Assembly (NCBI GenBank): GCA_045605425.1
Contig: JAZUQA010000004.1
Coordinates: 1 to 26,683, forward strand
Length of the DNA: 26,683 bases
Direction: 5' to 3'
From: Acutalibacteraceae bacterium
GTDB lineage: Bacteria > Bacillota > Clostridia > Oscillospirales > Acutalibacteraceae
This document shows, piece by piece, positions 1,577 through 25,765 of this stretch. Position numbers and translations under genes: made by a program. The notes below the pieces were generated by a model. That model made no database searches and was not told where the DNA came from. It saw nothing but the letters and a program-made list of their open reading frames with translations. Position 1 is the first letter of the stretch, and every line of letters starts with the position of its first letter.

Positions 1577-3241
1577 TCACTTAACTGCCTTCTTGGATGT
1601 TGTGAACTTGATGATAAACATACCTGCAAGCATAACAACAATCATAAGAGGAAGAACAATAGCAGCATTGGGTACGAAGCCGGCGATAACATAACCTACG
1701 AATGAGAACGCAGCAACCGTCATAGCGTAGGGAAGCTGGGTTGAAACGTGGTTGAGGTGGTTACACTGACCGCCTGCGGAGGACATAATTGTTGTATCGG
1801 AGATGGGTGAGCAGTGGTCGCCGCAGACAGCACCTGCAAGGCAAGCGGACATTGCGACAATCTGGAGAGGATCACCTGCTTCGAAGATAACAACAACAAT
1901 CGGGATAAGGATACCGAATGTGCCCCATGATGTACCTGTTGAGAAGGAAATAAAGCAAGCAACAAGGAAGATAATAGCAGGAAGGAACTTTGCAAGAGCA
2001 CCTGCGTTAGACATAACATCGTTAACAAAGGGCTGTGCGCCGAGAACGGCTGTCATATTCTTAAGAGCTGTTGCGAAGGTAAGAATAAGGATAGCGGGAA
2101 CCATTGCAATAAAGCCCTTGGGAATGCACTCCATAGCTTCCTTAACGGTAACAACCTTACGAAGCGCAAGATAAGCAATTGTGAATACAAGAGCAATAAT
2201 GCTGCCCCAGGGAAGACCGACTGTAGCATCAGTATCGGCAAAGGCTGTAATGAAATCAGCACCGTCGAAAATACCGCCGACATAAACAAGAGCGAATACG
2301 CAGGCAATAATAAGAACAACGATGGGAAGAACAAGGTCAAGAACCTTACCCTTGGGGTTGAAGCCCTCTTCCGTAACCTCTGCCTTTTCGCCTGAGGTGT
2401 AAAGGTCACCGTTCTTCATAGCGTTGAACTCGTGAAGCTTCATCGGGCCGAAGTCAAACTTCATAACTGCAAGAGCAACCACGAAAATGAGAGTGAGAAG
2501 TGAATAGAAATTGAAGGGAATTGCCTTTATAAACAGAGACAGTCCTTCTCCCTCGGGAGCGTAGGAGGAAACTGCTGCTGCCCAGGAAGAAATGGGAGCA
2601 ATCATACAAATCGGAGCTGCAGTAGCGTCGATAAGGTAAGACAGCTTTGCACGGGAAATCTTGTGGCTGTCTGTTACGGGGCGCATAACGGAGCCGACTG
2701 TAAGGCAGTTGAAATAGTCATCAATAAAGATAAGTACGCCCAGAACAAAGGTTGCAAGCATTGCACCTGTACGGGACTTGATGTGGGTCTGTGCCCAGCG
2801 GCCGAAAGCAGCTGAACCGCCCGACTTGTTGACAAGGGCAACAAGAATACCGAGAACAACGAGGAACACGAAGATACCTGCTGTACCGGATACGGCGGAA
2901 ATAAGACCGTCGTTAGTGAGGATATCCATAGTGCCGGTAAAGCTGAAATTTGAGCCGAGAAGAGCACCTGCAAGGATACCGATGAAAAGTGAGCTGTAAA
3001 CCTCTTTGGTTACAAGGGCAAGGCCGATAGCGATTACCGGGGGAACGAGAGCCCACCAGGAAGCCGTAACCTGACCTGCACCTGCACAGGTTTCGCAGTC
3101 TGCACCGTCAACAAGACCTGCACCGCCGCAATCAACACAGGGAGCAGTTGCCATTGCGCCGCCCGAAACGCCTGCCCAGACGAGCAGACCGACAATCGCT
3201 ACAGCGACAACAGCAAGAAGTATTTTTCTTGACTTTGACAT
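1577..3241 (-). CDS. nhaC: Na+/H+ antiporter NhaC-family transporter with an N-terminal signal-anchor helix plus a DnaJ-type CxxCxGxG x2 zinc-finger module
   Basis: Polytopic ORF with NhaC-like organisation (LVTKEVYSSLFIGIL..., C-terminal GDHCSPISDTTI motif). Start chosen at ATG 3241 (MSKSRK) because a GGAG RBS lies 8 nt upstream. The track start at 3301 is a GTG with no RBS. Confidence 0.85.
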   Translation of the reverse strand: MSKSRKILLAVVAVAIVGLLVWAGVSGGAMATAPCVDCGGAGLVDGADCETCAGAGQVTASWWALVPPVIAIGLALVTKEVYSSLFIGILAGALLGSNFSFTGTMDILTNDGLISAVSGTAGIFVFLVVLGILVALVNKSGGSAAFGRWAQTHIKSRTGAMLATFVLGVLIFIDDYFNCLTVGSVMRPVTDSHKISRAKLSYLIDATAAPICMIAPISSWAAAVSSYAPEGEGLSLFIKAIPFNFYSLLTLIFVVALAVMKFDFGPMKLHEFNAMKNGDLYTSGEKAEVTEEGFNPKGKVLDLVLPIVVLIIACVFALVYVGGIFDGADFITAFADTDATVGLPWGSIIALVFTIAYLALRKVVTVKEAMECIPKGFIAMVPAILILTFATALKNMTAVLGAQPFVNDVMSNAGALAKFLPAIIFLVACFISFSTGTSWGTFGILIPIVVVIFEAGDPLQIVAMSACLAGAVCGDHCSPISDTTIMSSAGGQCNHLNHVSTQLPYAMTVAAFSFVGYVIAGFVPNAAIVLPLMIVVMLAGMFIIKFTTSKKAVK

Positions 3242-11453: not shown

Positions 11454-12299
11454 TCAATTAATAATTTCTTTTATTTTTTCAAGCACGCTGTACGGAATTG
11501 CCATATTCCCCGTGCCCTTACCGATTGAAATGTGGGGCTTCATTGCGGCGTGAAAATCCGTACCGCCGCTCAAATTCAGCCCGTGTCTTTTTGCCATAGC
11601 CTGAAACTTTTCCTGCATTTCTTCGTCGTAATCGGTGTAGTAGCCTTCCAAGCCGTCAAGTCCGTAAGATTTGAGCTCAATTAAAAATTTTTCCAGTTCT
11701 TCATCGGAAATCTTTATAAGGTGCGGATGCGCCAAAAAGGCAACACCGCCTGCGGAATGTATGGCTTCAATTGCGGTTTTCGCCTCTAACTTCTGGTTGC
11801 CGAAATAGGCAGGCTTACCCGAAGAAAGATATTTTTCAAACGCCTCCTTAACGGAAGATACATAGCCCTTGTTCAACATAACCCGTGCAAAATGTGCCCT
11901 GCCGACTATACCGCCCGGCGCAAGCGAGGCAGCCTCTTCAAGCGTAACATCAAAGCCGAGGTCTTTAAGAAGCTGCGCAGTCATAACGTTGCGCTCAATC
12001 CGCTTTTCAATAATCTCGCCCAGGATTTCTTTCAAATTCGGGTTGTGAACATCAATAAAGTATCCGAGAATATGCGTTTCCGTTTTAGATTTAACGGAAA
12101 ACTCAATTGCAGGCACAACCTCAACGCCGTACCTCTCCCCTGCCTCAACAGCTTCTTCAACACCGCTTACGGTGTCGTGGTCGGTCAGCGCTATTGCGGC
12201 AAGACCGTTTTGTGCTGCGTGCTTTACCAGCTCGGCAGGTGTCATCGACCCGTCCGAGCAGGTTGAGTGGGTGTGCAAATCAATCAGCCCTTGCTGCAA
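11454..12299 (-). CDS. PHP-domain metal-dependent phosphoesterase (TrpH/YciV-like)
   Basis: IDLHTHSTCSDGSMTPAELV N-terminus, ..LTDHDT.., and ..GTDFH.. are PHP family motifs. The start is probably TTG 12299 (LQQGLIDLH), because GGGAGGTG lies about 6 nt upstream. The ATG at 12332 has no RBS. The gene lies 13 nt upstream of GH95 and is probably co-transcribed with it. Confidence 0.8.
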   Translation of the reverse strand: MQQGLIDLHTHSTCSDGSMTPAELVKHAAQNGLAAIALTDHDTVSGVEEAVEAGERYGVEVVPAIEFSVKSKTETHILGYFIDVHNPNLKEILGEIIEKRIERNVMTAQLLKDLGFDVTLEEAASLAPGGIVGRAHFARVMLNKGYVSSVKEAFEKYLSSGKPAYFGNQKLEAKTAIEAIHSAGGVAFLAHPHLIKISDEELEKFLIELKSYGLDGLEGYYTDYDEEMQEKFQAMAKRHGLNLSGGTDFHAAMKPHISIGKGTGNMAIPYSVLEKIKEIIN

Positions 12300-12444
12300 A
12301 GCGTCACCTCCCAAACAATTTATATAATACAAATTCTAGTTTATTATATTATCAAAAATCTATATGCATTGCAATAGAAAAAGTGCAGAATTTTATCAAA
12401 AACTTTAGCGCTTGAAAGTGATAAAATTATTTTTGCAAAAAGTA

Positions 12445-12473
12445 TTGACATTCAAAAATCACGGGTGTATAAT
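12445..12473 (+). promoter_or_regulatory. Near-consensus sigma-A promoter of the aro operon leader
   Basis: TTGACA (12445-12450), exactly 17 nt spacer, TATAAT (12468-12473). Confidence 0.75.
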
Positions 12474-12506
12474 GCACTCAATCTTTGACACGGGAGACGC
12501 AGTATT

Positions 12507-12575
12507 ATGCTTTGCAAAATGAATGCAACTGCATACGAGTTTTTTTACTTTTACTTTTATTTCAGCGAGAAATAA
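12507..12575 (+). CDS. Leader peptide MLCKMNATAYEFFYFYFYFSEK (22 aa) with 8 consecutive Phe/Tyr codons
   Basis: ATG 12507 is preceded by GGGAGA (12492-12497). Codons 12540-12563 read TTT TTT TAC TTT TAC TTT TAT TTC. Stop TAA is at 12573-12575. The ORF lies between the promoter and the terminator of an operon that makes Phe and Tyr. It is too short for the ORF track. Confidence 0.7.
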   Translation: MLCKMNATAYEFFYFYFYFSEK

Positions 12576-12633
12576 ATAGTAGAAGTGATTTTTGCTGCGC
12601 CTTAATTCAAAGGCAGAATATAAAGCGATTTTA

Positions 12634-12676
12634 AAGAGCTTTGCAGTAATTTCACTGCAAGGCTCTTGATTTTTTT
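12634..12676 (+). terminator. Intrinsic terminator (attenuator) immediately upstream of aroF
   Basis: agagctttgcagt (12635-12647) pairs with actgcaaggctct (12654-12666): 13 bp with one G-U, 6-nt loop, followed by a run of 7 T (12670-12676). The aroF RBS and ATG follow within 17 nt. Confidence 0.85.
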
Positions 12677-12692
12677 GAAAGGTGTTTTAAAA

Positions 12693-13703
12693 ATGGTAGT
12701 AGTACTTAAAAGCAACGCAACACAAAATCAGCTCGACAACCTTATAAGCTGGCTTGAAGAACAGAAGGTTCTTGTTCATATTTCAAAGGGCGAATATCAG
12801 ACCATTCTCGGCCTTGTAGGCAACACAACAGCCATTGACACAGACCTTATTGAAGGTCTTGACATAGTTGAAAGCGTAAAGAGAATTTCCGACCCGTTCA
12901 AGAGCGCAAACAGAAAGTTCCACCCCGACGACACGGTAGTTGACTGCTCGGGCGTAAAAATCGGCGGCGGTGAATTTGCAATTATCGCAGGCCCCTGCTC
13001 CGTTGAAAGCGAAGCACAGATTCTTGAAGTAGCAACAAAGGTACAGGCAGGCGGTGCAACACTTCTGCGTGGCGGCGCTTTCAAGCCGAGAACCTCACCC
13101 TACGATTTCCAGGGTCTTCACGCAGAAGGTATTGAGCTGCTGCTTGAGGCAAAGGAAAAGACAGGTATGCCGATAGTAACTGAAATTATGAGCGCACATC
13201 ACCTGCCCTTATTTGAAAAGGTTGATGTTATTCAGGTTGGTGCACGCAACATGCAGAACTTTGAGCTGCCCAAGGAGCTTGGCAGAACAAACAAGCCGAT
13301 ACTTCTCAAAAGAGGACTTGCAAACACACTTAAAGAGCTGCTTATGAGCGCTGAATACATTATGGCAGGCGGCAACGAGAACATCATTCTCTGCGAAAGA
13401 GGTATCCGTACCTTTGAAACCTACACGAGAAATACGCTTGACCTTTCCGCCGTACCGATGCTCAAGGAGCTCACACATCTGCCCGTAGTAATTGACCCCA
13501 GCCACGCAAGCGGTATTGCAAGGCTGGTAAAGCCAATGGCTATGGCTGCCGCAGCAGCAGGCGCAGACGGACTTATGATAGAGGTACACAACGACCCGCA
13601 GCACGCATTGTGTGACGGCCCGCAGTCACTCACACCCGAGCAGTTTGAGGACGTTGCAAGGCGTGTATTCGCAATACGCAAGGCAGTTGCGGAGCTTGAC
13701 TGA
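12693..13703 (+). CDS. aroF: 3-deoxy-7-phosphoheptulonate (DAHP) synthase, type I-beta, with an N-terminal ferredoxin-like/ACT-like regulatory domain
   Basis: [11 protein letters not shown]...[16 protein letters not shown] is an N-domain like that of the Thermotoga-type regulated DAH7PS. It is followed by the catalytic barrel ([32 protein letters not shown]). The start is ATG 12693 with an AAGGTG RBS. The track start TTG 12666 lies inside the terminator stem. Confidence 0.9.
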
Positions 13704-13730
13704 TAATTAACAGCAAAGGAGAAGAATGCA

Positions 13731-14573
13731 ATGAAAATAGGTATATGCGGCCTCGGTCTTATTGGAGGCTCACTTGCAAAGGCATTTAAAAGAGCAAACG
13801 AAACCGTATTCGGCTACGATATAAATACTCCCGTTACCGACTATGCGGTAATGGCAGGAATTACCGACGGAGTGCTTGACGACAAAACGATAGGCGAATG
13901 TGATTATATTTTCGTTGCACTTTACCCCAATGCTGTGGTAGAATATGTAGATAAGATTTCCGGAAAGGTAAAAAAAGGCGCAACGGTGGTTGACCTTTGC
14001 GGTACAAAAGCAACTGTCTGTCCGCCCTGTTTCAGAATAGCTGAAGAAAACGGCTTCAACTTTGTGGGCGGTCACCCGATGGCTGGCACACAGTTTTCCG
14101 GGCTTAAAAATTCCAAGGAAACACTTTTTGACGGCGCAACAATGATACTTGTGCCAAAGCCCAACGAGGATATGCATTTACTGGCAGACCTTCGTGACGT
14201 GCTTCTCAAAGCCGGCTTCGGCACGGTTACGGTATCCACACCCGAGGTGCACGACGTAAATATAGCCTACACCTCACAGCTTGCTCACGTTGTTTCAAAC
14301 GCATATGTCAAAAGCCCCCGTTCAAAGGTTCACAAGGGCTTTTCCGCAGGCAGCTACAAGGACCTGACCCGTGTTGCGTGGCTGAACGAGAATATGTGGA
14401 CACAGCTTTTCCTTGAAAACTCCGAAAACCTGATTATGGAAATTGACCTGATGGTAGATAATTTAAAGAAATACAGCGAAGCATTAAAGGAAAAAGACGA
14501 AGAAAAAATCCGAGACCTGCTGCGTGAAGGCAGGCTTATGAAGGAAGCGGTTGACAGTGACGAAAATAATTGA
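13731..14573 (+). CDS. tyrA: Prephenate dehydrogenase
   Basis: 280 aa. N-terminal Rossmann motif GLGLIGGS and the GGHPMAG catalytic motif. AAAGGAG RBS present. Confidence 0.88.
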
Positions 14574-15609
14574 GGTTAATGCAGGTAAGCCCTACAGCGT
14601 AAAAATCGGAGGCAGTCTGCTTGACAAAACGGGCGAAGAAGCAAAAGCACTCGGGCTTGACGGCAAGGCACTCATAATAAGCGACGACAACGTTGCCGCA
14701 CTTTATATTGAAAGAGTGAGTGCTTCGCTAAAGCAAGCAGGCTTTGAGGTGTTAAGCTTTGTAATTCCTCACGGCGAAGCCTCCAAATCTGCCGAAAATC
14801 TGATTGCAATACTTGAATTCGCCGCAGAAAACGCCCTGAGCCGCACGGACACATTTTTTGCCCTGGGCGGCGGTGTTGTCGGCGACCTTTGCGGCTTTGC
14901 AGCGGCAGTTTATATGAGGGGCACAAACTTCGTTCAGCTTCCCACTACCCTGCTTGCGGCGGTTGATTCATCAGTCGGCGGTAAAACGGCAATAGACCTT
15001 ACAGCCGGAAAAAACCTTGCAGGCGCCTTTTATCAGCCGAAGCTCGTGCTTTGTGACACGGACACCTTTGACACCCTGCCCGACAATGAATTTTCAAACG
15101 GTATGGCAGAGGTTATCAAGTACGGTATGTTCTGCGACAGTGAGTTTCTTGATATTCTTGCCGAAAGCAACACGGATATTGAAAGCATAATTGCACGCTG
15201 TGTTCAGATTAAGGCAAGGGTTGTCGAAGCCGATGAATTTGACAAGGGTGAGAGAATGTTCCTCAATTTCGGTCACACCGTTGCCCACGCTGTTGAGAAT
15301 TTAAGCAGCTATACCACTCCGCACGGAAGCGCAGTTGCAATAGGTATGGCGGTAATCACAAAAGCCGCAATTGCTATGGGTAAATGCGAAAATGAAGTTT
15401 TGGAAATTCTGATTGAACTATTGAAAAAACACAAGCTCCCCTTTGAATGTCCCTACGGCGTTGACGAGGTTTTTGAGGTTACGCTGAAGGACAAGAAAAA
15501 TGCCCACGGTAAAATAACACTCGTTATTCCCACGGGCAAGGGCGAAAGTGTACTGCAAAAATGCGATTATAACGAACTCAAGGAAATTATTACACTCGGA
15601 TTGAAGTGA
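14551..15609 (+). CDS. aroB: 3-dehydroquinate synthase
   Basis: 352 aa with GGGVVGDLCGFAAAVYMRG, LPTTLLAAVDSSVGGKTAI and the HTVAHAVE metal site. TTG start with an AAGGAAG RBS. It overlaps the tyrA 3' end by 23 nt. Confidence 0.88.
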   Translation: MTVTKIIEVNAGKPYSVKIGGSLLDKTGEEAKALGLDGKALIISDDNVAALYIERVSASLKQAGFEVLSFVIPHGEASKSAENLIAILEFAAENALSRTDTFFALGGGVVGDLCGFAAAVYMRGTNFVQLPTTLLAAVDSSVGGKTAIDLTAGKNLAGAFYQPKLVLCDTDTFDTLPDNEFSNGMAEVIKYGMFCDSEFLDILAESNTDIESIIARCVQIKARVVEADEFDKGERMFLNFGHTVAHAVENLSSYTTPHGSAVAIGMAVITKAAIAMGKCENEVLEILIELLKKHKLPFECPYGVDEVFEVTLKDKKNAHGKITLVIPTGKGESVLQKCDYNELKEIITLGLK

Positions 15610-15618
15610 TTAAAAAAT

Positions 15619-16827
15619 ATGAAAGCAATTATAACTCCCTCTGCTCTCTGCGGCGAGGTAAAAGCGCCTGCTTCAAAATCGGTTGCACACCGTGCGCTAA
15701 TCTGTGCGGCGTTGAGTGACAGGGCAACAAAAATTGACTGCTCCACCACATCAGCCGATATTGAAGCCACGGCTGACTGCTTAAGACAGCTTGGTGCAAA
15801 AATCACAAAAACAGATACGGGCTTTTTCGTTGAACCGATAACCAACTCAACCGAAAACGCAGTGCTCAACTGCGGTGAAAGCGGTTCAACACTCCGTTTT
15901 ATGTTACCCGTTGCCGCCTCATTAGGTAAAGTGGTTTCACTTTACGGCAGCGGCAGATTACCCGAAAGACCCATAGGAGAGCTTTGCGAAGCCTTACGCT
16001 CACACGGGTGCAGCACAAGCGGCGACACCATCCCCTTGACAGTAAGCGGAAAGCTCCAATCGGGTGACTATGTTATAGACGGCAGTGTCAGCTCACAGTT
16101 CATAAGCGGTCTGCTGCTCAGCCTGCCCCAAACCCACGCAGAATCAACGGTTACGGTAATCGGCGAAATTCAGTCAAAGCCATATATCGATATGACTTTA
16201 TCCGTTCTTTCCGACTTCGGAATCAGAACAGAATTCATTGAAAACAAAATAAAAATATATGCAAATAACGGCTATGTTTCGCCCGAAAAATACACGGTTG
16301 AGGGCGATTGGTCGAACGGAGCGTTCTTTATCTGTGCAAATGAAATTGAAGGCAACAACGTAAAGTGTTTAAGCTTGACAGATGCTTCATTGCAAGGCGA
16401 TAAGGCAGTTGCCGAAATTGTAAAAAAATACGGCTCGGATATAAGAATTGATGTCGGCAACATACCCGACCTTGTGCCTGTGTTAGCAGCTACGGCGTGC
16501 TTTTTCAAGGCAACAACCGTGTTTTATAACGCCGCAAGGCTGAAAATAAAAGAAAGCGACCGTTTGCTTTCAACACAAAAAATGATAACCGACCTTGGCG
16601 GCTGTGCCGAGGCAACAGATGACACACTTACCGTTTACGGAACGGGAAAACTAAGCGGCGGTACTGTTGAGTCGTTCAACGACCACCGCATCGTAATGGC
16701 GGCGGCAATTGCGGCAGCAGCGTGCGAAAACGAAACGGTAATCAACGGCTGTGAGGCCGTAAACAAATCCTACCCCACTTTTTTTGAAGAGTATAAAGCT
16801 CTGGGCGGTAAAGTAAAATTAGATTAA
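15619..16827 (+). CDS. aroA: 3-phosphoshikimate 1-carboxyvinyltransferase (EPSP synthase)
   Basis: 402 aa with KSVAHRALICAAL, GESGSTLRF, ESDR and NDHRIVMA motifs. Confidence 0.9.
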   Translation: MKAIITPSALCGEVKAPASKSVAHRALICAALSDRATKIDCSTTSADIEATADCLRQLGAKITKTDTGFFVEPITNSTENAVLNCGESGSTLRFMLPVAASLGKVVSLYGSGRLPERPIGELCEALRSHGCSTSGDTIPLTVSGKLQSGDYVIDGSVSSQFISGLLLSLPQTHAESTVTVIGEIQSKPYIDMTLSVLSDFGIRTEFIENKIKIYANNGYVSPEKYTVEGDWSNGAFFICANEIEGNNVKCLSLTDASLQGDKAVAEIVKKYGSDIRIDVGNIPDLVPVLAATACFFKATTVFYNAARLKIKESDRLLSTQKMITDLGGCAEATDDTLTVYGTGKLSGGTVESFNDHRIVMAAAIAAAACENETVINGCEAVNKSYPTFFEEYKALGGKVKLD

Positions 16828-16839
16828 CGGAGATGCATT

Positions 16840-17928
16840 ATGGAATCCTCTGCAGGTGAAAACATTAAAATAACTATATTCGGCGAGTCACACTCACCCG
16901 AAATCGGCGTTACGATAGATGGCTTTCCCGTCGGCTTTGAGATTGACGAAGAAAGCCTTGCCGCATTTATGGCAAGACGAGCCCCGGGAAAGGACGAATT
17001 TTCCACCCAAAGAAAGGAAGCGGACAAGGTTGTATTTCTGTCGGGATTAACTGACGGCAAGACTGACGGCACAACAATCCGTGCAGTCATTTACAACAGC
17101 AACCAGCGTTCAAAGGATTATTCCGAGCTCAACGATAAGCCCAGACCGGGTCACGCCGATTACACGGCAAAGATGAAATACGGCAAGGATTACGATGTCA
17201 AAGGCGGAGGACATTTTTCCGGCAGGCTCACCGCTCCGCTTTGCATTGCAGGCGGAATATGTATGCAATGGCTTGAAAGCAATGGCATCACCGTTGGCGC
17301 ACATATAGCAAGTGTTCACGGCATTAATGATAAAAGATTTGACAGCGTAAATATAACAGCCGAAGAGTTGACCGCTCTTAAGGGAAAGCCCTTCACCTGT
17401 ATTGATGACGGTGCAGCCGAAATAATGAAGGCTGAAATTCTTGCCGCAAAGAACGACTGTAATTCAGTCGGAGGTACTGTTGAATGTGCCGTTATCGGTC
17501 TACCCGTAGGTGTCGGCGGCCCTATGTTCAGCGGAATTGAGAGCAAGATTTCGCTTAACGTTTTCGGAATTCCGGCAGTAAAGGGCATTGAATTCGGCGC
17601 AGGCTTTGAAAGCACAGAGCTTTTCGGAAGCGAAAACAACGACGAATTTTATTTTGATGAAAACGGCACGGTAAAAACACGCACAAACAACTGCGGCGGT
17701 ATACTAGGCGGTATTTCCAACGCCATGCCGCTTATATTCCGGGTTGCATTCAAGCCCACACCTTCTATTTACAAAACGCAGAACACGGTTTCGCTTGAAG
17801 CAAAAGAGAACACAACGCTTAACATAGTCGGCAGACATGACCCGTGCATTGTTCAGCGTGCCGTACCCGTAGTTGAAGCGGCAGCGGCGCTGACAATTGC
17901 CGATATGATGATTGGAGAGAACAGATAA
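16840..17928 (+). CDS. aroC: Chorismate synthase
   Basis: 362 aa with FGESHSPEIGVTIDGFPVG, RPGHADYT, GRHDPC motifs. Confidence 0.9.
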   Translation: MESSAGENIKITIFGESHSPEIGVTIDGFPVGFEIDEESLAAFMARRAPGKDEFSTQRKEADKVVFLSGLTDGKTDGTTIRAVIYNSNQRSKDYSELNDKPRPGHADYTAKMKYGKDYDVKGGGHFSGRLTAPLCIAGGICMQWLESNGITVGAHIASVHGINDKRFDSVNITAEELTALKGKPFTCIDDGAAEIMKAEILAAKNDCNSVGGTVECAVIGLPVGVGGPMFSGIESKISLNVFGIPAVKGIEFGAGFESTELFGSENNDEFYFDENGTVKTRTNNCGGILGGISNAMPLIFRVAFKPTPSIYKTQNTVSLEAKENTTLNIVGRHDPCIVQRAVPVVEAAAALTIADMMIGENR

Positions 17929-17929
17929 C

Positions 17930-19072
17930 ATGGACCTGCAGCAGATAAGACAGGATATTGACAATATTGACACCCAGCTTGTTGAGCTTTTCAAGCAGAG
18001 ATTGGAAAAGGCGGCAAGCGTTGCAGAATACAAAAGACAAAACTCAATGAGCATATATGACCCCACACGGGAGCGTGCGCTGTTGCAGCGTGTTTCCGAC
18101 CTTGCAGGCGAAGAACACGAGGCTAACACTAGGCTGATGTTTTCGCTGCTGATGGATCTTTCAAAGTCCTACCAGGCTAAGCTGCTTCTGCCTGAATCAA
18201 AATACGAAAAAATAATCGCTTCTGCTCTATCAGATACCTCTCCCCTCTTCCCGGAAAGAGCAACCGTTGCCTGCCAGGGCACAGAGGGTGCATACGCACA
18301 GGTTGCGTGCAACAAGCTGTTTGCACTACCCAACATTATGTACAACAATTCCTTTGAAGGCGTGTTCAACGCAGTAGAATCAGGGCTTTGCAAATACGGC
18401 GTACTGCCGATTGAAAACAGCACGGCAGGCTCGGTCAACAGCATTTACGACCTTATGATGAAGCACAGCTTCTATATCGTAAGAAGCACGAGAGTGCAGA
18501 TTAATCACTGCCTGCTTGTTAAGCCCGGCACAAAGCTTGAGGATATAAAGGAAATTATTTCTCACGAGCAGGCGCTCAGCCAGTCAAGCGATTTTCTCAG
18601 CTCACTTGACGACGTAAAAACCACAGCCTATGCTAACACGGCACTTGCCGCACAGGCAGTTGCCCAAAGTGACAGAAAAGATATTGCAGCCCTCGGCTCT
18701 GCCGAATGTGCCGCACTTTACGGTTTAAGCGTGCTTAAACGAGCAGTCCAGAACAAGGGCAGTAACTACACACGCTTTATCTGCATTTCCAAAAAGCCCG
18801 AGATTTATCCGGGTGCGGACAGGACAAGCCTTATGCTTATTCTTCCCCATAAGCCCGGCTCGCTTTACAAAATCATCTCCCGTTTCTATGCTCACGGCAT
18901 AAATATGACAAAGCTCGAAAGCCGTCCGATTCCCGGCAGCGACTTTGAATTTATGTTCTATTTTGATGTAGGCACTTCGGTTTACTCACCTGCCCTCAAG
19001 CAGCTTATATGTGAGCTTGAAACAGAGCTTGACAATTTCACCTATCTCGGCAGTTATTCGGAGATAGTATAG
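17930..19072 (+). CDS. pheA: Bifunctional chorismate mutase / prephenate dehydratase (P-protein)
   Basis: The N-terminal AroQ-type CM helix bundle (LQQIRQDIDNIDTQLVELFKQRL..) is followed by the PDT domain (VACQGTEGAYAQ.., ENSTAGSV) and a C-terminal ACT domain (TKLESRP...FEFMFYFD). The start is probably ATG 17930, 1 nt after the aroC stop. The alternative is 17912. The stop TAG 19070-19072 overlaps the left end of the MITE-like insertion. Confidence 0.88.
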   Translation: MDLQQIRQDIDNIDTQLVELFKQRLEKAASVAEYKRQNSMSIYDPTRERALLQRVSDLAGEEHEANTRLMFSLLMDLSKSYQAKLLLPESKYEKIIASALSDTSPLFPERATVACQGTEGAYAQVACNKLFALPNIMYNNSFEGVFNAVESGLCKYGVLPIENSTAGSVNSIYDLMMKHSFYIVRSTRVQINHCLLVKPGTKLEDIKEIISHEQALSQSSDFLSSLDDVKTTAYANTALAAQAVAQSDRKDIAALGSAECAALYGLSVLKRAVQNKGSNYTRFICISKKPEIYPGADRTSLMLILPHKPGSLYKIISRFYAHGINMTKLESRPIPGSDFEFMFYFDVGTSVYSPALKQLICELETELDNFTYLGSYSEIV

Positions 19073-19345
19073 GGTGGCGAGAATAATCCGAACCCGCCCA
19101 AAAGCGTGAATTTTTGCGGCTTTTCGGCGTTTCGGATTTGAAAGGCAACAGCCTGTCGGCATCCTCAACATCCCAAAATCCATCAAAAATTTGCACTTTT
19201 GGGTCGCAGATTTTTTACGAAGCGGATTTTTGTCATATCAAGGCACAAAACGCAGTAAATCCTAACGGATTTACGAGTATTTTAACGATGAGATGGCGGA
19301 AATCCGCCCCGCAAAAAACGGGTTCAGATTATACTCACCACCCTA
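19070..19345. mobile_element. MITE-like non-autonomous element (272 bp plus flanking TA/TA) inserted between pheA and aroE/aroK
   Basis: 25-bp terminal inverted repeats: gggtggcgagaataatccgaacccg (19072-19096) versus the reverse complement of 19319-19343, gggtggtgagtataatctgaacccg (22/25 match). TA lies on both flanks (19070-71, 19344-45). There is no credible ORF. Internal perfect hairpins are gtaaatcc-taac-ggatttac (19255-19274) and ggcgga-aa-tccgcc (19295-19308). Confidence 0.7.
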
Positions 19346-19364
19346 AGAAAAGAGATTATGCCTT

Positions 19365-20594
19365 ATGGTTTTCGGACTACTCGGCCGCAAGCTCGGCCAC
19401 AGCTACTCACCACAGATTCATTCATTCTTAGGCGATTACGAATACCCGCTTTACGAAAAAGAGCCCGATGAAATAGCCGATTTTATGATAAACGGCAGCT
19501 TTGACGGAATGAACGTCACTATTCCCTACAAGGAAACCGTTATGCCGTATATGTCGGGGCTTTCCGATTCGGCAAAGAAAATCGGCTCGGTAAACACGGT
19601 TACACGCCTGCCCGACGGCACACTTTACGGCGACAATACGGATTATTACGGTTTTTCGTTTCTGCTTGAAAGCGCAGGCTTTGATGTCAAGGACAAAAAG
19701 GTTATCGTGCTCGGCAACGGCGGTGCCTCCAAAACGGTTGTCTGCGTCTGCCGTGACAAGGGCGCAAGGGAAATAACCGTTATTTCACGCAGGAGTGAAA
19801 CGGACAACTACGAAAATATCACAAAGCATGCCGATGCGGATTACGTAATCAACACAACGCCTGTTGGAATGTACCCGAACAACGGCGAAAGCCCTGTTGA
19901 TTTGTCAATCTTCAAAAGCTGCCAGGGCGTTGCCGACCTCATTTATAATCCGTCAAAAACAAAGTTTATTCTGGATGCCGAAGCGCTCGGAATTCCTGCG
20001 GTAAACGGACTTGTTATGCTCTGCGCCCAGGCAGTTAAGGCGGCAGAAAGTTTTATTAAAACAGATTTTGATAAAAACAAAACGCTTGAAATACTGTCAG
20101 CACTCGAAAAGCAGATGAAAAACATTGTGCTTGTTGGTATGCCCGGCTGCGGTAAATCCACAGCAGGCAAGCTGCTTGCAAAAAAGCTGAACAGAGATTT
20201 AGTTGACACGGACAGCCTTATAGTTGAAAACGAAAAAATGCCCATACCCGAAATTTTCGAGAAATACGGCGAGGAGTATTTCCGCAACGCCGAAGCCAAA
20301 GCGGTTGCCGAAGCCGGAAAAATGAGCGGCAAAATAATCGCAACGGGCGGCGGTGCAATACTGCGTGAGGAAAACAAAACGGCGCTCAGGCAAAACGCCG
20401 TTGTTGTGTACTTAAACCGTGATATTTCATCACTTGCCATTGACGGCAGACCATTGAGCAAAGCAAACAAGCTCCAAGAAATGTACAACACCCGTCTGCC
20501 GCATTACAAAGCGGTAAGCGATATGTCGGTTGAGGTGGATTCCGCCCCCGAAATAACGGTTGAAAGAATACTGAAAGGACTTGAGGAAAAATGA
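19365..20594 (+). CDS. aroE/aroK: Fused shikimate dehydrogenase / shikimate kinase
   Basis: The N-terminal part has AroE motifs (LLGRKLGHSYSPQIH, NVTIPYK, GNGGASK). The C-terminal ~165 aa has the AroK P-loop GMPGCGKST plus DTD and GGG motifs. Confidence 0.88.
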   Translation: MVFGLLGRKLGHSYSPQIHSFLGDYEYPLYEKEPDEIADFMINGSFDGMNVTIPYKETVMPYMSGLSDSAKKIGSVNTVTRLPDGTLYGDNTDYYGFSFLLESAGFDVKDKKVIVLGNGGASKTVVCVCRDKGAREITVISRRSETDNYENITKHADADYVINTTPVGMYPNNGESPVDLSIFKSCQGVADLIYNPSKTKFILDAEALGIPAVNGLVMLCAQAVKAAESFIKTDFDKNKTLEILSALEKQMKNIVLVGMPGCGKSTAGKLLAKKLNRDLVDTDSLIVENEKMPIPEIFEKYGEEYFRNAEAKAVAEAGKMSGKIIATGGGAILREENKTALRQNAVVVYLNRDISSLAIDGRPLSKANKLQEMYNTRLPHYKAVSDMSVEVDSAPEITVERILKGLEEK

Positions 20595-21016
20595 AAATAC
20601 TTGTTATAAACGGTCCTAATTTAAATATGCTGGGTATCAGAGAACCCGAAATATACGGCAGTAAAACCTATGCGGATTTATGCGGTATGATTGCCGCTCA
20701 CTGCGAAGGAAAACAAATTGAGGCCCAGTTCTACCAGTCCAACCGCGAGGGCTGTCTTGTAGATAAAATTCAGGAAGCCTACGGAAAGGTTGACGGAATT
20801 ATCATCAACCCCGGCGCATACACTCACACAAGCGTTGCCCTGCTTGATGCGGTCAAGACTGTAAACATTCCCACAGTTGAGGTGCACATTTCCGACCCCG
20901 ATGAGAGAGAAGAATTCCGCAAGATTTCTTACATACGTGCCGCCTGTATCGCAACGGTAAAAGGCAAGGGCTTTGACGGGTATCTTGAAGCGGTAGATAT
21001 ATTGGCTGATATTTAA
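20591..21016 (+). CDS. aroQ: Type II 3-dehydroquinate dehydratase
   Basis: 141 aa with ILVINGPNLNMLGIREPEIYG, NPGAYTHTSVAL and VEVHISD motifs. An ATGA overlap joins it to aroE/aroK. Confidence 0.9.
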   Translation: MKILVINGPNLNMLGIREPEIYGSKTYADLCGMIAAHCEGKQIEAQFYQSNREGCLVDKIQEAYGKVDGIIINPGAYTHTSVALLDAVKTVNIPTVEVHISDPDEREEFRKISYIRAACIATVKGKGFDGYLEAVDILADI

Positions 21017-25690: not shown

Positions 25691-25765
25691 GCCTCCTTAG
25701 TTCAATGGATAGAATAAGCCCCTCCTAAGGGCTAGATATCGGTTCGATCCCGGTAGGGGGTGCCA
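25691..25765 (+). tRNA. tRNA-Arg (anticodon CCT), CCA encoded
   Basis: Manual cloverleaf. Acceptor GCCTCCT/AGGGGGT (two G-U). D-stem GTTC/GAAT with an AATGGATA loop. Anticodon stem AGCCC/GGGCT with loop CT-CCT-AA. Variable loop of 4 nt. T-arm ATCGG-TTCGATC-CCGGT. Discriminator G, then CCA. Confidence 0.9.

Follow-up and report, generated by a model that had tools for sequence, protein, structure and literature searches.

A probable Phe/Tyr leader-peptide attenuator upstream of the shikimate-Phe-Tyr operon of an Acutalibacteraceae bacterium, and its leader family in Clostridia

How does a member of the Clostridia couple the expression of a complete pathway for phenylalanine and tyrosine synthesis to the supply of these two amino acids? 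This question is raised by a locus of an Acutalibacteraceae bacterium (GenBank assembly GCA_045605425.1, contig JAZUQA010000004.1), of which a stretch of 26,683 nucleotides, in the following referred to as the window, was analysed. Upstream of aroF, the first gene of an aro operon, positions 12445-12692 harbour a short open reading frame (ORF) rich in Phe and Tyr codons and an intrinsic terminator, for which an earlier, sequence-only reading had proposed ribosome-mediated attenuation. Comparative and folding evidence strongly supports this proposal: the element is very probably a classical trp/pheL-type ribosome-mediated transcription attenuator of the shikimate-Phe-Tyr operon, sensing both Phe and Tyr. 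In fact, the locus features a Shine-Dalgarno (SD)-led 5' ORF, a run of cognate codons and a terminator before the first gene as well as, in silico, an antiterminator excluding the terminator and an anti-antiterminator using the regulatory codons.

The 5' part of the element comprises the following features:

12445-12473, plus strand: sigma-70-type promoter, 12/12 consensus match, with equivalents in the leader family
12492-12496, plus strand: GGGAG, the leader ORF's SD sequence at a distance of 10 nt from the ATG, as read from the sequence
12507-12575, plus strand: leader ORF of 22 codons plus stop (ATG at 12507, TAA at 12573-12575) encoding the peptide MLCKMNATAYEFFYFYFYFSEK; homologous ORFs occur at other aroF loci
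12534-12563, plus strand: regulatory codons, i.e., Tyr10, Glu11 and then the Phe/Tyr (F/Y) run; proposed stall site when Phe-tRNA or Tyr-tRNA is scarce

Promoter and ORF are present as the sequence-only reading had described them. TTGACA (12445-12450) and TATAAT (12468-12473), separated by a 17-nt spacer, constitute the only 12/12 consensus promoter in the 11-kb region scanned. Within the leader ORF, an uninterrupted series of eight Phe/Tyr codons (5 Phe and 3 Tyr) occupies 12540-12563; a ninth aromatic codon, Tyr10 at 12534, stands two positions earlier, and an ORF pattern like this run occurs a single time within the window.

Downstream, the leader offers three helices which compete for shared strands:

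12545-12563, plus strand: 5' strand of the anti-antiterminator ("region 1"), formed by bases of the F/Y run and paired in the minimum free energy (MFE) structure
12569-12588, plus strand: 3' strand of the anti-antiterminator, 19 bp with the F/Y run (bulge at 12577), spanning the stop codon 12573-12575 and ending in AGUGA
12584-12598, plus strand: 5' strand of the antiterminator ("region 2"), AGUGAUUUUUGCUGC, forming a duplex of -15.2 kcal/mol with 12643-12656
12643-12656, plus strand: 3' strand of the antiterminator, GCAGUAAUUUCACU, made up of the upper end of the terminator 5' arm, the entire loop and three bases at the start of the 3' arm
12634-12676, plus strand: intrinsic terminator with the stem 12634-12647/12654-12667, a 6-nt loop (12648-12653) and a T7 tract (12670-12676)

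For the terminator, the coordinates and the T7 tract given earlier hold, but the stem consists of 14 pairs (6 G-C) instead of 13, or of 15 if extended by one (-21.7 kcal/mol, about -21); 16 nt separate the T7 tract from the aroF ATG at 12693. The pairing of the F/Y run with 12569-12588, which had been likened to the "1:2" arrangement of classical attenuators, is recovered in the MFE structure and amounts to -16.6 kcal/mol for the hairpin alone and -18.2 kcal/mol as duplex, while the fold of the whole leader has a z of -5.9, with 0/200 shuffles being as stable. Of the two antiterminator pairings guessed by eye, 12592-12598/12643-12649 proved correct, yet it represents only half of the helix 12584-12598/12643-12656; the other, 12623-12627/12638-12642, appears as inner hairpin of the predicted antiterminated fold. 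Folded with the antiterminator, the segment 12576-12660 reaches -22.5 kcal/mol. The five bases AGUGA (12584-12588) are common to the 3' strand of the anti-antiterminator and to the antiterminator. In the nascent transcript up to 12657, the antiterminator is found in the MFE structure at every ribosome position tested in the F/Y run, whereas it is absent without a ribosome or with a ribosome at the stop codon, where the terminator begins to nucleate.

Based on these structures, the following course of events can be proposed. Transcription would start near 12480, about 7 nt past the -10 box, and the 22-codon leader would be translated at once. With Phe-tRNA and Tyr-tRNA plentiful, the ribosome would cross the eight F/Y codons to the UAA at 12573, from where its footprint would reach the start of AGUGA; once the ribosome has gone, the 19-bp hairpin 12545-12563/12569-12588 would re-form. 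AGUGA would be unavailable either way, allowing the terminator (12634-12667 plus T7) to fold and transcription to end 16 nt before aroF. If either charged tRNA becomes scarce, the ribosome would stall in the F/Y run and hold that strand, thereby freeing region 2 (AGUGAUUUUUGCUGC, 12584-12598), which would capture the newly transcribed terminator apex (GCAGUAAUUUCACU, 12643-12656) without delay. Nucleation of the terminator stem would thereby be prevented, and the antiterminated polymerase would read into aroF-tyrA-aroB-aroA-aroC-pheA-aroEK-aroQ.

Is this arrangement a peculiarity of one genome? A scan with the AroF protein, using one genome per GTDB species, delivered 80 loci (L001-L080), or 81 together with the window. 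The sample consists mostly of gut and rumen Clostridia metagenome-assembled genomes (MAGs), and the closest AroF proteins stem from a Clostridia MAG of sheep rectum (99% identity) and from a MAG labelled Acutalibacteraceae (97% identity). Upstream of aroF, 67/81 loci have a short ORF that contains 5-10 Phe/Tyr codons (L027, L034 and L063 were left out of this count); the record titles of these 67 are mostly of the class Clostridia (Oscillospiraceae, Acutalibacteraceae, Lachnospiraceae, Ruminococcus, Anaerovoracaceae and others). Among the members in culture are Hominicoprocola fusiformis (L015), Angelakisella massiliensis (L055) and Pseudoflavonifractor (L067). All 67 leader-bearing loci feature a strong intrinsic terminator between leader ORF and aroF (-12.7 to -30.4 kcal/mol), and the upstream comparison suggested in the sequence-only reading shows F/Y run, reading frame and terminator to be conserved in this set. 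An ATG-initiated ORF with at least six F/Y codons in eight was present in 57 of the 67 real upstream regions (85%), compared to 0.3% of dinucleotide shuffles. In 54 of the 67 members, the leader ATG is preceded by a promoter that matches at least 10/12 consensus positions, the -10 box ending a median of 32 nt before this ATG, which places the leader ORF at the 5' end of the transcript. The earlier expectation that leader-peptide attenuation would be unusual for Clostridia does not stand, given that 67/81 aroF loci carry the element and that the class has been published as a computational prediction (PMC6429828; cf. PMC8632094).

What distinguishes a translated leader from a mere stretch of U-rich RNA is the behaviour of its codons. 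A frame-blind choice of the best SD-ATG in the 90 nt preceding the run fell into the F/Y frame in 63/64 loci (p = 4e-29), and the distance from ATG to run varied between 3 and 14 codons, always in whole codons. Across the family, the runs comprise 246 Phe, 243 Tyr and 1 Trp codons (median of 7 F/Y codons per run), and this balance of Phe and Tyr under exclusion of Trp fits an operon that makes Phe and Tyr and is devoid of trp genes. The runs are interrupted by sense codons of no particular kind (e.g., AGC, GCA or ACC), a stop codon never being among them, and the leader peptides, 14-47 amino acids in length, vary freely in their lengths and tails. This pattern is the signature of a regulatory leader, in which the codons appear to matter and the peptide does not; the leader ORF would be translated and ribosomes would stall on hungry F/Y codons.

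Alternatively, the element could be an RNA-only or protein-binding switch, in which a protein or small ligand reads the U-rich UUUUAC-repeat hairpin and thereby chooses between terminator and antiterminator, and the ORF is a by-product of RNA constraints. Protein-mediated attenuation is frequent in Firmicutes (e.g., TRAP, PyrR), and the F/Y run indeed doubles as strand of a conserved hairpin, so that RNA pairing alone constrains it. The recurrent peptide motif "FAAEY" can be viewed in the same light, as it results from the pairing of UUUGCAGC with GCUGCAAA and not from the peptide. However, neither the coincidence of SD-ATG and F/Y frame in 63/64 loci nor the spacing in whole codons would be expected from such a switch, and the same holds for interruptions restricted to sense codons and for a codon balance that excludes Trp and matches the operon products. 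As the leader also lacks an Rfam family match and a (G/U)AG array, we consider this explanation very improbable.

The helices can also be followed through the family, as the 67 leaders share a common plan. SD and ATG are followed by UUUGCAGCWGAA and by an F/Y run that usually reads UAYUUUUACUUUUACUUU. Next comes AAAGUAAAAGUGAUUUKUGCUGCAA, closely preceded or followed by the stop codon; a spacer that differs between loci then leads to the terminator, with GCAGUGAAAUCACUGC as its typical apex. The sequence blocks of the family are UUUGCAGC, the F-Y run, GUGAUUUKUGCUGC and GCAGUGAAAUCAC. In the family version of the anti-antiterminator, UUUGCAGC and the F/Y run pair with AAAGUAAAAGUG and GCUGCAAA. 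Its F/Y-run helix (columns 61-72/96-107 of alignment A1) is 82% paired in the family, and the outer helix UUUGCAGC:GCUGCAAA, which encloses the F/Y run (A1 columns 31-38/114-126), 77-81%. Changes on both sides are seen, e.g., in L014, L019, L026 and L062, where the run ACUAUUACU goes along with AGUAAUAGU downstream. The antiterminator of the family is formed by GUGAUUUKUGCUGC (region 2 consensus GUGAUUUKUGCUGCAA) and the terminator apex. The apex and loop (GCAGUGAAA.UCACUGC) are unusually conserved for intrinsic terminators among L001-L080, because the antiterminator helix includes the loop together with the beginning of the 3' arm.

Pairs were counted in a sequence-only MAFFT alignment of 49 leaders, with slid partners and shuffles as controls. 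Anti-antiterminator and terminator were 82% paired compared to 35-50% for slid partners, with 152 double-change cells against 55 in shuffles, and compensatory changes affected 10/11 pairs of the terminator. For the antiterminator, 74.5% of cells were paired against 28-64% after sliding, and its covariation score was reached by 0/500 shuffles. Alignment-free comparisons gave the same picture: the preferred pairing partner of a run is the downstream segment of the same locus (median rank 0.076, p = 1e-10), and that of a downstream segment is the terminator apex of this locus (median rank 0.061, p = 3e-12), while the negative control, run versus apex, gave no signal (p = 0.38). Taken together, all three helices appear to co-evolve across the leader family. 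Moreover, how many bases of the terminator 5' arm are engaged by upstream sequence depended on the ribosome. Over the 67 loci, a stalled ribosome gave a mean of 9.45, compared to 7.33 in its absence; the mean was 5.81 if the ribosome was placed at the stop codon, and shuffling of the spacer gave 7.20 (Wilcoxon p 1e-6 to 1e-8 overall).

These data also bear on the idea that the translated upstream ORF (uORF) acts mainly on translation or mRNA stability, e.g., if a constitutive partial terminator keeps basal expression low and the leader ribosomes protect the transcript or aid initiation at aroF. In PMC4833913, leader ORFs are proposed to boost downstream translation by reinitiation, and the terminator being the equilibrium structure in all states would be compatible with this idea. 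Nevertheless, the 117 nt that lead from the leader stop codon to the aroF start contain a strong terminator, co-evolution of apex and region 2 would be pointless unless both compete, and the nascent-transcript folds switch in a footprint-dependent manner. An effect of this kind as the main function is thus very unlikely.

T-box and TRAP are the mechanisms generally cited for aromatic amino acid genes in Bacilli, and a divergent T-box (tRNA-sensing) or TRAP-type leader could have been missed by profile searches. Diverged T-boxes can in fact escape Rfam models (PMC5314783). In the present case, the leader spans only about 200 nt, which are mostly taken up by the ORF and the three helices, and TRAP senses Trp, whereas the operon lacks trp genes. 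At gathering thresholds, the sole Rfam match in the whole window was a tRNA at 25691-25762. A check for T-box and riboswitch models, as recommended in the sequence-only reading, remained without any acceptable match in the leader at E up to 10; in particular, no T-box (RF00230), Phe_leader (RF01859) or leu-phe leader (RF01743) was found in 12300-12750. Weak matches (PyrG_leader, Spy1186876 and others) aligned to the terminator hairpin only and were rejected as chance. A T-box core-like sequence was not found in the leader either, and of the 9-11 (G/U)AG triplets with 2-3 nt spacers that make up a TRAP array, the leader contains six triplets, the longest properly spaced chain being 1. A T-box or TRAP-type leader is therefore extremely unlikely, and leader-peptide attenuation remains the preferred explanation.

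Several observations nevertheless weigh against the attenuator. Folding with and without a ribosome mask yielded mutually exclusive structures in the nascent transcript, as the sequence-only reading had envisaged, but the full-length leader at equilibrium keeps the terminator in every ribosome-masked state. With the terminator dominating at equilibrium, the switch would work only kinetically and need synchrony of polymerase and ribosome. This synchrony is non-trivial, since Bacillota are classed as "runaway transcription" organisms, in which the polymerase outruns the ribosomes (PMC13323073). In many loci, the fold without a ribosome sequesters part of the terminator arm as well. The antiterminator shows double changes in 9 pairs compared to 7.7 in shuffles, a count reached by 124/500 shuffles and hence of moderate support, and RNAalifold on the MAFFT alignment recovers the terminator alone de novo, so that the other two helices rest on the named-structure and the alignment-free tests. 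The lineage of the window (window, L001, L002) has a degenerate UUUGCAGC strand, AAUGCAACUGCA. Finally, the literature searched contained no experimental evidence for the window locus or the leader family. If the attenuator operates as proposed, polymerase and lead ribosome would have to be synchronised, probably by a pause.

In the lineage of the window, the outer helix is weak (4/8 pairs in the window as read from alignment A1), the F/Y-run hairpin is extended to 19 bp, and the UUUGCAGC strand that the family usually has immediately 5' of the F/Y run is replaced by a CGCAGUA strand. In the MFE structure of the window, this CGCAGUA (12498-12504), located between SD and AUG, pairs with UGCUGCG (12593-12599) of region 2 (duplex -10.8 kcal/mol). 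Such a pairing could tie initiation at the leader to the switch; little weight is given to it, however, because L002 has a mismatch there.

Which genes would be placed under this control? The genes from 12693 to 21016 presumably form one operon, judging from their tight packing on the same strand:

12693-13703, plus strand: aroF, DAHP synthase with N-terminal ferredoxin-like domain (Pfam PF00793, 1.8e-77; PF18152 from residue 1)
13731-14573, plus strand: tyrA (Pfam)
14551-15609, plus strand: aroB (Pfam)
15619-16827, plus strand: aroA (Pfam)
16840-17928, plus strand: aroC (Pfam)
17912-19072, plus strand: pheA, chorismate mutase-prephenate dehydratase-ACT (CM-PDT-ACT; Pfam)
19365-20594, plus strand: aroE-aroK fusion (Pfam)
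20591-21016, plus strand: aroQ (Pfam)

From aroF, which is preceded by the ribosome-binding site AAGGTG at 12679-12684, to aroQ, this set covers all seven shikimate steps and both terminal branches and includes no trp genes; the Pfam content thereby agrees with the gene assignment of the sequence-only reading, which had matched the regulatory codons to the pathway products. A gap of about 290 nt inside the operon, between pheA and aroE-aroK (19073-19364), contains a perfect palindromic hairpin, GTAAATCC-TAAC-GGATTTAC, at 19255-19274, which is terminator-like on both strands, and a 105-aa ORF without Pfam match overlaps this gap (19114-19431). The gap could be an internal regulatory site or a remnant. 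Divergent from the aro promoter and separated from it by an AT-rich spacer of 112 nt, a gene for a PHP-domain protein is located on the minus strand (11454-12332). No regulator gene adjoining the aro operon was seen among the neighbouring genes, and a tRNA gene is present further downstream at 25691-25762.

The 14 leaderless loci mostly have aroF behind a gene on the same strand or carry the labels Bacteroidaceae, Alloprevotella or Spirochaetales, and neither a T-box nor another Rfam element was found in them. The F/Y-rich ORFs of L027 and L034 were rejected as leaders, since they represent the C-terminal end of pheA upstream of aroF. Degenerate or displaced candidate leaders below the thresholds occur about 490 nt (L029, MLEEAMSRTFGFPFAFYFYGYRKSFLRREG) and 86 nt (L060, ...FATGYRYYCLTAYYYGR...) upstream of aroF. 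Five loci without an F/Y leader (L020, L035, L063, L072 and L070, with aroF at 3001, 3001, 1532, 1438 and 3001, respectively) come from MAGs labelled Bacteroidaceae, Alloprevotella and Spirochaetales and encode AroF proteins 68-71% identical to that of the window. L035 and L063 have in common a tiny ORF, MYFCN[PL]HYYKKNK[LQ], whose end is only 5 nt away from aroF. These AroF relatives could be explained by horizontal transfer, mis-binning or another type of leader.

How does the leader family relate to known systems? By computational prediction, Stav et al. 2019 (BMC Microbiol 19:66, PMC6429828) described uORF-13 and uORF-12 as "aromatic amino acid attenuators", found from Clostridium novyi NT. 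For uORF-13, with its type locus in C. novyi NT at NC_008593.1 2309418-2308872, 336 examples were reported in Bacillales, Clostridiales, Thermoanaerobacterales, Negativicutes and metagenomes, about half of them upstream of aroF, with tyrA as the next commonest downstream gene besides other shikimate genes; a short ORF with a conserved F-Y-F inside a hairpin P1 is followed by a terminator stem, which was interpreted as a trp-like attenuator (PMC6429828). Compared by written description, our family agrees with uORF-13 in its position upstream of aroF, tyrA and shikimate genes in Firmicutes including Clostridia, and the family helix UUUGCAGC:GCUGCAAA enclosing the F/Y run corresponds to the "F-Y-F within the loop of P1", again followed by a terminator. 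Judged by this description, the window element belongs as a new member to a class already predicted in Firmicutes in 2019 and is no new mechanism for Clostridia. However, the publication gives P1 and the terminator only, whereas the present analysis adds how the F/Y run pairs and defines an antiterminator to which the terminator loop contributes, and the window lineage deviates by its degenerate 5' strand of P1 and its 19-bp F/Y-run hairpin. New in this study are the antiterminator engaging the terminator loop, evidence for the co-evolution of three helices and the finding that Phe and Tyr codons occur at 1:1. The uORF-13 motif was not among the Rfam 15 matches.

Further relatives share parts of this design. 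uORF-12, with 1258 examples mostly upstream of amino acid transporters (PMC6429828), and uORFC-13-1, which precedes aroF in Acholeplasma and encodes Phe (Brewer et al. 2021, PMC8632094), likewise combine an F/Y- or F-rich uORF with a subsequent terminator and aromatic amino acid genes in Firmicutes or Mollicutes. They differ in that uORF-12 precedes mostly transporters, encodes its peptide just before P1 and has a more complex structure, while uORFC-13-1 is confined to Acholeplasma and has a U-run coding for at least one Phe. Leader-peptide attenuators outside Proteobacteria also include, e.g., the aroR leader of Corynebacterium glutamicum with F-Y-F, which controls aromatic biosynthesis according to an entry cited in the supplement of PMC6429828, the His leader of bacilli (PMC2965389), the Leu-rich ilv attenuator of Staphylococcus aureus (PMC5794164) and the leuA leader of streptococci (PMC5314783); these belong to other phyla or amino acids and are unrelated in sequence and structure. 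A literature search revealed no experimental validation of uORF-12, uORF-13 or aroR, and for C. difficile 630, mapping has placed a premature termination event within the 5' untranslated region of aroF (PMC8237595).

With pheL-pheA (Phe_leader, RF01859) and trpL (Trp_leader, RF00513) of Escherichia coli, the window element has in common the SD-led ORF, the cognate codon run, the 1:2, 2:3 and 3:4 helices, a terminator directly ahead of the first structural gene as well as a stop codon that lets the terminating ribosome occlude region 2. In contrast to these systems, it is located in Bacillota without sequence or profile similarity (no Rfam match, E up to 10), would sense Phe and Tyr equally and control the whole common pathway plus both branches, and its antiterminator engages the loop and apex of the terminator beyond the 5' arm.

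For annotation, positions 12445-12692 are to be described as a Phe/Tyr leader-peptide attenuator of the aro operon and the 22-codon ORF as its regulatory leader instead of a protein gene. In leader-peptide attenuation, the first ribosome must not fall behind RNA polymerase, and an attenuator of this type that is widespread in Bacillota sits uneasily with their assignment to the "runaway" transcription class. The leader family might even imply a physical or kinetic coupling of lead ribosome and polymerase in Clostridia, at least on these leaders, which would contradict that assignment, and the balanced run might act as Phe/Tyr OR-gate sensor over the common pathway; we put this forward tentatively and regard it as rather doubtful. 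The means of such coupling would likely be a hairpin-dependent pause at the F/Y-run hairpin, released by the ribosome. The native Phe/Tyr-responsive control part may also prove useful in its own right. With three defined, co-varying helices, the leader family represents a compact, testable system for the synchrony of transcription and translation in anaerobic Firmicutes.

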